Below are positions 50,730-53,626 of a stretch of DNA of 64,000 nt, one piece after another. The DNA lies in the IMG/VR virus record IMGVR_UViG_2907128583_000005, positions 32,001-96,000 of that record; one strand, written 5' to 3'. The translations under genes and the position numbers were made by a program. Origin of the DNA: a virus. Lineage: Duplodnaviria; Caudoviricetes. Within the stretch, counting starts at the first letter, position 1. Each line of letters begins with the position of its first letter. The notes under the pieces are model-generated. The model did not search any database. It was not told where the DNA came from and was given only the letters and a program-made list of their open reading frames with translations.

Positions 50730-52386
50730 TTATTTTGTTTCTCTATATTCTTCTATAAATAATTGGAGTGTTTTAGTTACTTTGAATTTTGGTCTATAAA
50801 CTTTCCATACATTTATATTTAATGTTCCAATTGCTTCAATCTCACTAAAGACTGGAACACTTTTATAGTAATTTACGTCAGTCTTAAACTTCATAAGCTG
50901 AAGCTTGTCGCAGTCAATTTTAACGGTGTTGTTGGACTGGCCAATCAACTTCTTATCTGACACAAATAGCCCTTTAATAAGAAATCTACCCTGTTTGAAT
51001 TTATTACCTGTGATCCGATAGAATTCAGAAAGATAGTTGATTAGATTTTCGTTTACCTGATTGATGTCAAATTCAAGGTCATAATATAATGAATTATCTG
51101 CAACAAAATTCTGAAGCTTTCCGTTAAGCTCTTGACGTAATACTTCAATGTCTTTTTTCAACAATTGAAGACCACCAGCTCCATCATGTCCACCTGTATA
51201 AATAACGCTATTGCAATCACCAAGCATATCTAACATTGAAAAATCTTCTAAGCCTCGAAAGCTTCCTGCATATGTATCCTCACTGTCTCCATTACCAAGT
51301 ACAATTGCTGGCCTACTATATGTTCTGGACAGTTCTTGCGCTACTAGTCCATTCATACCTTTTCCAAGAGTATGATCAATAACAATAACAACTTTGTCGT
51401 TTTCATTTACTAAAGGTTTTAACCTAATTAATGCTTCAGCTTGTACTGTTTTTCGTCTTTCATTTAATCTAATCAAATCTTTAACCAATAATTTAATCTC
51501 TGGACTGTCCTCGTCGCACATCAGAAAATCTATAGCCAACTGAATATTGTCTGCTCTCGTGGCTGCTGTAACGGCAGGGCTTACTCCGTATAAGAAGTCT
51601 GTTGCTGAAAGGTTGTTTAAATCAAAGTTCATAGCTGCAAATAATACTTTTAATCCTGCATGACGCAATCCCTTCAAGGATAGTTTCGCAAAATATCTAT
51701 TCTCTAACTCTATCATTGACATCATGTCTGCCATCAATGAAAACCCCGGCAAGTCAGATAATTGATGTGCATAATGTGTATTCATGTAATCATCAATTAC
51801 CTCGCAAACTTTGAACACAAGTAATCCACCACAAGCATTTTTATTTGGATATTTACATCCTTCTTGCTGAGGATTCACTATAATCGCATAGGGATTATTG
51901 TTAGTAATGGTATGATGATCAATAATTAAGCAGTCAATACCTTTATCAACCAATGCCTTCATCGATTGTGTATCATTACTTGAACTATCTACAGCAATAA
52001 ACAACTTTGTTCGTTTAGGAATTGAATCAATTAAATTATTGATCGAGTGACCTTCGCTTCGTTCATTGCATACATAATGTACATCGTCTGTGAAATTTTT
52101 TAGATACTTGTATAGTAGTACTAATGATGTTACGCCGTCATAATCCTAACTAATCAGGATCTCCAGAAATCGTAATTGTTTCACGACTTCTTATTGCAAG
52201 TATGATTCGTGTTGCTAGTGCATCTATATTTTTGAGTAGGTATGAATTGCATATTACATTTGTCAATGGGTTCAAGAATTGATCAATATCTTCGATACCA
52301 TTGATTTTAGCCAACTTACCATATGTATTGTCGTATGCTTCAAACGGAATTTTGGGTTCTCTCTGTTTCCATCTCAATACCTTCAT
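50730..52386 (-). CDS. recJ: RecJ-like DHH exonuclease (SPbeta YorK-like) interrupted by a 10-nt insert at 52143-52152
   Basis: Without the insert: GDPD-YDG (motif I), IAVD, IIDHH, NPQ, GSFR, GGHDGAGG; 548 aa. Confidence 0.88.
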
Positions 52387-53251
52387 TCTCCTTATCTCGT
52401 AACCTTCCAGTCATTTGTAAATATTTTTTATTTTTTCTTGTTAAATATGTATTGGATTTATCATACAAATGATTTAGTATTTTTGGCACTTGTTCATTCC
52501 CACAATAAGATAAACCTCTGCAATATCCATCTCTACCCTCATTTCGTATAGAGAGCTTTGGTGTATGATTTGTAATTCCCACTTCAACAAAATAATTTGC
52601 TATAATAGTACATATCTCTTCGTATGTTGTAAACTGCACTCTCGCTTTCAGTCTCTTTTTAGATCGATCACAAACGTATCCGCACATAATTGATCCATCA
52701 GCATCTAAGACTCCTCTAATAAAATGCCTAATGAGATGTTTTGGTAGTTTATCAACAATCTTTTTAGTATTATGTCGGTTTGCAACTAAACCGTAGTCGT
52801 TGTGTAGTTTTCCTGCAAAGTACTTATTAGAAATATATAGCCTCACTACATCTTGCGCATTATCAAAATTACTTTTAAGCTTATACTTTTTTATTGTGTA
52901 ATTTGCCTCTAAACTAATTTTTAGTTTTTCTAAATGCTCCCTATCCTCTTCCGCTAAGTCCAACTTAAACTCGTAATAACAGATCCCATTTCTAACTCTA
53001 CTGCAAACATATCCGTCGCACCAAATAAACCCCAACCAATAAGCCTTATCTTCTGAGTCTATTTTATCGAAATAATTCTTGTTGAAACTGTAGATGCTAC
53101 CATTCTGCCTCGCTTGAATATTTGATTCTTTAAACCACCTATCCAGCACCTTGCTGTCTCTAATATTGAATATCTTTTTTATTTCATTTTTTGGCTTTCC
53201 TTGTTCATACAATTTCCTCAATAATTCTGGAGTACATCCTCTGTCTGCCAT
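52340..53251 (-). CDS. Free-standing LAGLIDADG homing endonuclease
   Basis: Two motifs: KAYWLGFIWCDG and HFIRGVLDADG; N-terminal HTH; overlaps the recJ start. Confidence 0.88.
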   Translation of the reverse strand: MADRGCTPELLRKLYEQGKPKNEIKKIFNIRDSKVLDRWFKESNIQARQNGSIYSFNKNYFDKIDSEDKAYWLGFIWCDGYVCSRVRNGICYYEFKLDLAEEDREHLEKLKISLEANYTIKKYKLKSNFDNAQDVVRLYISNKYFAGKLHNDYGLVANRHNTKKIVDKLPKHLIRHFIRGVLDADGSIMCGYVCDRSKKRLKARVQFTTYEEICTIIANYFVEVGITNHTPKLSIRNEGRDGYCRGLSYCGNEQVPKILNHLYDKSNTYLTRKNKKYLQMTGRLRDKENEGIEMETERTQNSV

Positions 53252-53626
53252 ATGGATTTTGTTTGAAGGTTCTATATAATCACTCCTTGTACTTCTTTAT
53301 TGAATACTTATTTTGAATTTTTCAGGTAGTGTAATTTTAAGGTTATTGTTAATTGCTTTCATAAAACTATAAGTGAGATACCTATTCTCTCTTCCTGTCT
53401 GTTTATTTACGATTTTGATATTCACCATATCAATCACTCCAGTTCAGGTTAGTTTATTCCTAAGTATTCCAACATTTCTTTCTTCTCTACCTCACTGAAA
53501 TTCTTCCATGCAGCCTGTAACTCCAACATAATACAGTTAAACTCACGCCAATTACCCTCGCTGTTTTTTGTGACAATCCCATACCCATTCAGCATTACAT
53601 CTAAAGTTTCTATTCTAATCACCTCC

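Follow-up and report, generated by a model that had tools for sequence, protein, structure and literature searches.

The stretch of DNA analysed here (hereafter the window) comprises 64,000 nucleotides, positions 32,001 to 96,000 of the IMG/VR virus record IMGVR_UViG_2907128583_000005 (Duplodnaviria; Caudoviricetes), and it holds a recJ gene whose most conserved codons are broken by a 10-nt insert, a short way downstream of a gene for a free-standing homing endonuclease of the LAGLIDADG family. An earlier note on this DNA had seen in these two features a possible mobile cassette, and this is the proposal that we weigh here. The region sits within a bacterial genome of 5.96 Mb and the relatives of the stretch are IMG/VR phage contigs of 158-202 kb, so that we take the window to be a large prophage. 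The minus strand holds every gene in this part of it. Reading along that strand, the endonuclease gene (52340..53251) is followed by the N-part of recJ, 78 codons from an ATG at 52386 (52153..52386) that end in a GAT at 52155-52153, the putative take-off codon; by the insert, TAGTTAGGAT (52143..52152), made of a stop TAG (52152-52150), the letters TTAG and a second GAT (52145-52143), the putative landing codon; and by the C-part of recJ, 470 codons and a stop (50730..52142), which would be read after a hop of the ribosome and in which Pfam recognises the DHH, DHHA1 and RecJ_OB domains. Counted with the landing codon, the frame of the C-part runs 52145..50730 and opens with DYDGVTS. The geometry put forward in the earlier note stands: its two-motif LAGLIDADG gene, the open reading frame (ORF) 53251..52340, overlaps the start of recJ by 47 nt, its stop (52340-52342) lying that far inside the frame that starts at ATG 52386; the distance from the end of this ORF to the insert, given there as about 190 nt, is 188 nt; and the insert falls in the most conserved codons of recJ, within the DxDxDG of the DHH motif, between GD-P-D and Y-DG.

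The sequence from 51800 to 53400, the ten nucleotides included, recurs unchanged in contigs of three studies, one assembled from DNA and the others from two RNA libraries (possibly all of the same strain), which makes an assembly error unlikely. A raw set of RNA reads gave zero reads on the stretch and hence no test, and a scan of the region for promoters and terminators returned no more than chance expectation.

The endonuclease ORF encodes 303 residues from its ATG and displays two motifs of the LAGLIDADG type, LGFIWCDGYV and IRGVLDADGSI. It matches the Pfam profile LAGLIDADG_3 (E 2.4e-5; 24.9 bits, against a cut-off of 22.5) and has 999 homologues, the closest with 56-59% identity. In 17/17 aligned sequences both motifs retain their acidic residues: in motif 1 (LGFIWCDG) D79 and G80 are invariant, and in motif 2 (GVLDADG) position 185 is D or E in all 17 and G186 is invariant. 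An AlphaFold2 model (pLDDT, the predicted local distance difference test, 87.2) places an N-terminal module of three helices before two alpha-beta domains. With this model Foldseek retrieved 106 PDB chains at E<=1e-3; I-HjeMI and I-AniI come first (E 5e-10), and all those listed belong to the LAGLIDADG enzymes or to engineered variants of them, including I-AabMI, I-OnuI and the bI3 maturase, with template modelling (TM) scores of 0.5-0.6. Sequence identity to the solved structures is 10-17%, and profile matches to PDB entries were obtained for I-HjeMI (8.6e-4) and I-AniI (3e-3). Two motifs, a profile match and a tandem alpha-beta-beta-alpha-beta-beta-alpha fold are thus found together, as in monomeric LAGLIDADG enzymes. 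Its sequence and predicted structure mark the ORF as intact and as coding for a free-standing homing endonuclease of the monomeric LAGLIDADG type, extended at its N-terminus by a helical module predicted to bind DNA, and since the acidic residues are kept throughout and the model matches the fold of the family, the enzyme looks active. That it is free-standing follows from a scan of the window between 51900 and 53600 against Rfam, which gave 0 matches at E<=1, hence no group I intron and no other Rfam family; an intron enclosing the endonuclease was ruled out in this way, and the ORF precedes the start of recJ instead of standing between two exons. Ahead of the ATG of the gene there is an in-frame ATA (53275-53273), 7 nt past a Shine-Dalgarno sequence AAGGAG (53288-53283).

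The endonuclease gene is a presence/absence polymorphism. In all four of the closest IMG/VR relatives (L002-L005) homology with the window, as traced by blastn, stops at 53278 and restarts at 52371, 11 nt standing in the place of 906 nt; the inserted element thus occupies 52372..53277 on the minus strand. RecJ is 83-95% identical in these four relatives (95% in amino acids in the C-part of L002). The left border of the insertion is marked by a small ORF of 46 residues (53297..53437, minus strand) taken from the ORF list, which is homologous in the relatives (window 53456-53278 against L003-L005, 87-88% by blastn) and whose end, PEKFKISIQ before the stop, is preserved in L216 too. There, behind the same upstream gene and at the same junction, stands an orthologous endonuclease with an intact ORF, 56% identical in amino acids and 62% in nucleotides, with a non-synonymous divergence (dN) of 0.34 and a saturated synonymous divergence (dS). 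The same junction is therefore empty in some of the kin (L002-L005) and occupied in another (L216), as is to be expected of a mobile gene. Elsewhere tblastn found the endonuclease in 0/33 related loci, in 0/17 IMG/VR loci of the recJ family of the window, in 0/92 further genomes of the genus when a comparable identity is required (a single relative, of 32%, lies at a different location) and in 0/400 genomes of the family at E<=1e-35. Among named phages, megablast with the region gave no match, and tblastn gave only distant recJ (at most 37%) and endonuclease (at most 33%) sequences, none of them adjacent among the rows looked at.

The arrival of the element has also altered the beginning of recJ, to which it supplies a new ribosome-binding site and the first codons (MKVLRWKQ... 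where the relatives have ..IAWKQ..). Between the AAGGAG at 52393-52388 and the ATG at 52386 there is only 1 nt, while a TTG at 52377 stands 10 nt away, and the string TTG AGA TGG AAA is common to the insert-bearing relatives. Translation of recJ may thus start at TTG 52377, which would reduce the overlap with the endonuclease to 38 nt. In L002 (3755-3800), and likewise in L003-L005, there is no ATG, GTG or TTG from the upstream stop to the conserved W-K-Q, and an ATA is the sole start candidate behind AAGGAG; the recJ genes of these insert-less relatives may then start at this rare codon.

The N-part of recJ, 77-88% identical to that of relatives by tblastn, ends with ...ITISGDPD and a TAG, and the two halves of the gene are separated by GAT TAG TTAG GAT TAT. 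When the 10 nt at 52152-52143 are taken out, the protein reads GDPDYDGVTS, with the canonical spacing of GDxDxDGxTS. Four related phage contigs read through this place without them, as GGAGATCC(T/A)GA(T/C) followed directly by T(T/A)TGA(C/T)GG, so that the insert is real relative to its kin and lies inside DxDxDG. We assembled 24 recJ alleles, namely the window, 17 from IMG/VR found by a profile search, one metagenome contig and five genomes of the same genus, with some redundancy (L009 is the same as L052, and L010 nearly the same as L051); a degenerate pattern for an interrupted motif I had found two more phage contigs, further pattern scans of IMG/VR with the 9- and 10-nt forms returned only five contigs already known, and a first scan of genome contigs with the C-part of recJ gave 0 relatives. 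An insert occupies the same junction in 7/24 alleles and is missing in 17/24. It exists in two lengths. The window, L043 and L044 have GAT TAGTTAG GAT and L046 has GAT TAGTTAA GAT, these four being 10-nt forms; the three 9-nt forms are GAT TAGTTA GAC, then TAT, in L216, GAT TAGCTA GAC in L050 and GAT TAGCCA GGC in L045. All seven begin with GAT-TAG, the landing codon is GAT in four and GAC in two of them, and the other positions of the insert vary.

Such an arrangement could be that of a dead gene, and it is worth stressing that the pattern of substitution speaks otherwise. Both halves of recJ are open in 7/7 insert-bearing alleles, in which the codons that flank the insert differ at synonymous sites. 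Among these alleles dS runs from 0.36 up to saturation; pairwise dN/dS is 0.02-0.11 for the N-part and, in the three pairs with unsaturated dS, 0.05-0.07 for the C-part, and between the window and L040 the C-part gives a dN/dS of 0.13. Both halves are under purifying selection, and because they have remained open and constrained over that divergence we do not consider recJ a dead gene. A stop reported in the recJ of G110 proved to lie outside the aligned gene. The question is then how the two halves are joined. In the 0 frame a TAG stands directly after the first GAT and in the +1 frame a TAG stands directly before the second; a simple +1 or -1 frameshift is discarded, as the 10-nt form has one of these stops on either side of its gap and other alleles carry in-frame forms of 9 nt. 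Read-through of the stop cannot serve the 10-nt forms, just as frameshifting cannot serve the 9-nt forms. Re-initiation to make a separate C-terminal protein was rejected as well: near the landing site there is no in-frame ATG, GTG or TTG, the first being a TTG at 52004, 47 codons on. From the sequences, a hop from GAT to GAT or GAC would alone restore the motif in both length versions, L045 needing a near-cognate landing. A stop behind the take-off codon, matched take-off and landing codons (in 6/7 alleles for the landing) and selection on both sides of the gap are the features found here, and they are those of ribosomal bypassing.

We now come to the link between the enzyme and the place of the insert, which is best seen in the family to which the enzyme belongs. 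A set of 240 loci was collected by profile scans (80 viral, 80 metagenome and 80 genome loci), and 29 of them have a recJ match in their flanks (16/80, 10/80 and 3/80, respectively). Narrowing this to the 20 loci with an enzyme at least 41% identical to that of the window, nine have recJ by tblastn, three a small DHH/DHHA1 gene by Pfam (L217, L224, L225) and four a weaker or inferred one (a weak match in L036 and L219, identity to loci already scanned in L218 and L235), while three stop at a contig edge and one, the partial copy of L133, has none. In a quick tree of the endonucleases, a clade of 26 rows (support of 96 in the Shimodaira-Hasegawa-like approximate likelihood ratio test, SH-aLRT) has a DHH or recJ context in 23/26; the enzymes of the window and L216 are sisters (99), and free-standing and intron-borne forms are interleaved. 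The positions taken up with respect to recJ are varied. The enzyme lies upstream of an insert-bearing recJ in the window and L216, inside recJ at motif I in L137, L223, L140, L141, L231, L143, L196 and L190 (probably also in L229 and L230), directly after recJ in L147, L150 and L151, where recJ ends at about 3937-3991 and the endonuclease runs from 4001, and 2-4 kb from recJ at nine loci. The three loci with the enzyme immediately downstream of recJ form a sub-clade of their own. Relatives of the endonuclease also lie directly upstream of DHH/DHHA1 genes of about 300 residues (L217:3740-4636, L224:3804-4736, L225:1000-1956, L036:4728-5642 and L219:3734-4630), and in L036, L219 and L224 the downstream frame opens at ..FDGIGC, as though motif I were interrupted there.

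The loci with the enzyme inside recJ tell us where this clade inserts. In L196, L190, L140 and L143 exon 1 ends with GTGGAT and is followed by a complementary guide, AGTCCAC, forming a P1 helix in which there is a U.G pair and one pair covaries, and a G closes the intervening sequence ahead of xDxDG; this P1 and terminal G can be read as those of a group I intron placed after the first aspartate, 6 nt upstream of the junction of the insert, an intron of a type for which neither the gathering scan nor the E-value scan of Rfam gave a match in L140. In L137 the E-value scan of Rfam recognises a group I intron (77 bits, E 1.7e-19; the gathering scan gave no match), in which P1 pairs AGACGGT with GCTGTCT, the 3' end ...ATAATTG meets GATGGA and the spliced product joins YDVDG to DGICS; it is located 3 nt downstream of the insert junction. 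The junction itself, after the second aspartate, differs from both intron sites, which lie after the first aspartate and after the codon that follows the second. Homing endonucleases that are encoded in introns make their cut in alleles lacking the intron, at its insertion site or right next to it. Since the intron-borne members are inserted there, the ancestral target of the clade would be the DNA for DHH motif I, and as the insert lies in the same stretch, any site of about 20 bp centred on this motif would have the 9-10 nt within it. Group I introns occur as well beside more distant relatives of the endonuclease (L093:1456-1778, L191:4699-4952 and L214:4864-5121; Rfam, 60-79 bits), in genes other than recJ that stand 2-4 kb from a recJ.

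The history of the recJ gene of the window adds a further element. Its C-part nests in an insert-less clade (100/100), and the tree of the N-part permits a single origin of the insert (76% of bootstraps). Identity to the insert-less L040 is 97-100% at 52090-51701 and falls to 70-88% on the upstream side of about 52120; next to the insert on this side, at 52240-52151, the closest alleles are the insert-bearing L216 and L044 (80-82%). The 5' 270 nt of recJ, insert included, thus differ in ancestry from the remainder of the gene. Because of this switch in identity we infer that the insert entered a gene of insert-less type by recombination ending 25-60 nt past it, which is as expected if a break had been made there.

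Putting these observations together, we favour a mechanism in which motif I of insert-less recJ is where the enzyme cuts, the insert serves both as self-immunity and as a sequence hopped over by the ribosome, and the two are spread by the repair of breaks, a reading to which we would give an even chance of being correct. The enzyme would cut insert-less recJ within the DNA for DHH motif I (GDxDxDG), where its intron-borne cousins insert, the putative target reading GATCCTGAT up to the junction and TATGAC beyond it. By splitting a recognition site of about 20 bp, the 9-10 nt would render the carrier genome immune to its own enzyme. In translation, the peptidyl-tRNA(Asp) on GAU, with UAG in the A site, would slide 9 or 10 nt, pair again with GAU or GAC and let the ribosome resume at UAU, to give ...GDPD-YDGVTS. 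In a mixed infection, a break in the naive allele would be repaired from the carrier, so that the insert would always be copied, and the endonuclease gene, some 190 nt away, only when the conversion tract reaches it. Short conversion tracts, we propose, might in this way have left alleles with the insert alone, a state that later loss of the enzyme would fit too.

Enzyme and insert agree in part only with such a scheme. When their co-occurrence across alleles, suggested in the earlier note as a check, was examined, an orthologous enzyme appeared only in company of the insert (2/2 loci, the window and L216, a small sample; 2/7 insert-bearing alleles and 0/17 insert-less ones out of 24). Against this reading must be set a number of points, which we gather here. 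The other five insert-bearing alleles (L043-L046, L050) have no endonuclease beside recJ, and the ten largest unexplained ORFs flanking these enzyme-less alleles gave only a weak HNH match, in L046. The odds that both enzymes fall by chance among the seven insert alleles are 21/276 = 0.08, kinship being ignored, and the two loci are related. Six relatives of the enzyme (L138, L139, L222, L226, L228, L276) stand directly upstream of an uninterrupted recJ, so that life upstream of recJ does not need the insert. The cut target is inferred from cousins that are just 29-49% identical. The segment at 52360-52271, between enzyme and insert, is nearer to the insert-less L040 and L042 (87-88%) than to L216 (77-80%), and a second divergent patch exists in the C-part at 51650-51400 (72-88% to L040-L042 in 60-nt windows), for which reasons transfer as one block is uncertain and mosaicism is general in recJ. 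As for the hop, RNAalifold on the seven sequences gave no conserved structure around the insert (-7.2 kcal/mol, 0/18 pairs compensatory), the landing position of L045 is GGC in place of GAY, and the contigs of the RNA libraries, which retain the 10 nt, cannot show translation, rare forms or transcription. In L045 (2989-3003) the reading is GAT TAG CCA GGC TAT, in frame; either a near-cognate landing is used there or the allele is impaired. In L046 (6591-7307) a 239-residue ORF with an HNH match below cut-off (E 0.0027) lies 2.2 kb downstream of the insert-bearing recJ. The mobile cassette of the earlier note is thus supported in part, by the presence/absence of the enzyme, its DHH/RecJ clade with intron-borne members within 6 nt of the insert position, the pairing in L216, its absence from the 17 insert-less alleles and the separate ancestry of the recJ 5' end; it falters on the five inserts without enzyme, the six uninterrupted recJ genes and the mixed ancestry of the DNA in between.

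These last three points are what one would expect if the enzyme were mobile and cut at or near the place where it is itself inserted (in the intergenic DNA or the 5' end of recJ) or elsewhere, as most LAGLIDADG enzymes indeed cut at their own insertion site, the hop insert being older, independent, and co-converted or co-inherited at a distance of 190 nt. We consider this unlikely, though it deserves to be kept in sight: introns of the same clade flank the insert junction, one kind 6 nt before it and another 3 nt past it, the orthologous enzyme keeps company solely with insert-bearing alleles, 2/2, and the divergent 5' patch of recJ stops about 25-60 nt past the insert. If the insert were a scar, left by imprecise loss of a motif-I intron or by faulty repair after cutting, recJ would be a pseudogene and the endonuclease a bystander; an in-frame stop with a change of frame within a catalytic motif, the lack of a detected stimulatory RNA structure and the fact that the phage group I introns of this family have TAA, TGA or TAG directly past the 5' splice site, resembling the start of the insert, would all fit. 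Seven alleles with diverged flanks and diverged versions of the insert, both halves open at a dN/dS of 0.02-0.11, make this improbable, as do a junction (after the second aspartate) that matches neither intron site and the conservation of TAG and of a GAY landing codon while other insert positions vary.

The protein might also have ceased to be a nuclease, in favour of a domesticated role in DNA binding or of a maturase-like kind, and would then have nothing to do with the insert today. Maturases are known among LAGLIDADG proteins, the bI3 maturase is among the fold matches, the N-terminal three-helix module is an addition, and the gene appears to share an operon with recJ with no terminator between them. 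Against this speak the acidic residues of both motifs, kept in 17/17 homologues, the gene's coming and going among close kin, and the 0 Rfam matches in 51900-53600, which leave no intron for a maturase to serve, and we hold it for very improbable. Returning to the mechanism that we favour, a break in motif I with the hopped insert as shield, we may now compare it with what is known.

To our knowledge no homing endonuclease other than MobA of phage T4, paired with gene 60, has so far been joined to a ribosomal bypass in a single selfish unit; Bonocora and colleagues reportedly described in 2011 how MobA and the 50-nt bypass of gene 60 make up a cassette in T4-like phages. The likeness is considerable. 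In both systems a free-standing endonuclease stands beside a conserved gene of DNA metabolism, whose metal-binding catalytic region is broken by a short insert, putatively untranslated in recJ; a stop follows directly on the take-off codon, the landing codon matches the latter, and the proposed role of the insert is to shield its carrier from its own enzyme. In both, too, the insert accompanies every copy of the enzyme and also occurs in some genomes without it: according to a preprint by Manning and Atkins, bypass accompanies the endonuclease in the MobA element of T4-like phages and is retained after endonuclease loss (10.1101/2022.08.31.505936). The differences are no less instructive. The nuclease is of the LAGLIDADG family here and of the HNH family there; the target is DHH motif I of recJ and not the Toprim domain of a topoisomerase; the gap is of 9-10 nt, five-fold shorter than the 50 nt of gene 60. 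Unlike its T4 counterpart, recJ is not split and has no added N- or C-terminal extensions, the enzyme being upstream of the gene and not inside it, and no stem-loop or nascent-peptide signal is apparent around its insert.

As an enzyme, the protein of the window resembles the group of I-AniI, I-HjeMI and I-OnuI in its two-domain fold and its motif residues, and its own cousins are encoded in group I introns, as in that group; it departs from it by standing outside any intron, by its extra N-terminal helical module and by an identity of 10-17%. Intronless homing is the way of the free-standing Seg and Mob enzymes of T4, which are of the GIY-YIG or HNH type and whose carriers are usually immune through point differences. 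The gene of the window is likewise found between genes or at their edge, and the cutting of a nearby conserved gene with co-conversion would be common to both, whereas the family, LAGLIDADG, and the proposed immunity, through an insert and not through point differences, set it apart.

With regard to translation, synthetic stop-hops between matched codons go back to Weiss et al. 1987, as cited in a 2016 review, which states that no natural in-frame stop-hop was known (PMC5009743). The terminase gene of Streptomyces phage Hau3 carries 10-nt inserts whose bypassing is driven by a rare UUA codon (PMC10732093). With such systems recJ shares a gap of 9-10 nt, a codon slow to be decoded in the A site and matched take-off and landing codons; it stands apart from the synthetic stop-hops by being a natural gene, with a UAG stop for the A site in each of seven alleles, and from the Hau3 inserts in that the latter have no link to an endonuclease. 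In our search of the literature, mostly of titles and the beginnings of abstracts, no paper was met that connects recJ and LAGLIDADG enzymes with introns or bypass in phages.

With some reserve, and at rather less than an even chance, we may therefore understand this locus as a second, independently evolved cassette of endonuclease and bypass, in which a LAGLIDADG enzyme directed at the DHH motif would be combined with a natural stop-hop of 9-10 nt (GAU-UAG...GAU/GAC), the hop replacing the intron as a harmless break of the target. The clade would have switched repeatedly between the intron-borne and the free-standing state, and short tracts or loss of the enzyme would have left the alleles that have only the insert. 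If this is true, the involvement of an unrelated family of nucleases, another target gene and a five-fold shorter gap would mean that self-immunity by bypass is a general route and not an oddity of T4. The recJ insert would then be the first natural stop-hop with matched codons that is maintained by selection, and its seven alleles in two lengths would offer a natural, minimal system for dissecting take-off and landing without elaborate signals. The LAGLIDADG family to which the enzyme belongs, with DHH motif I as a predictable target, would in turn be well suited to studying how homing endonucleases pass from an intron-borne to a free-standing life, and back.

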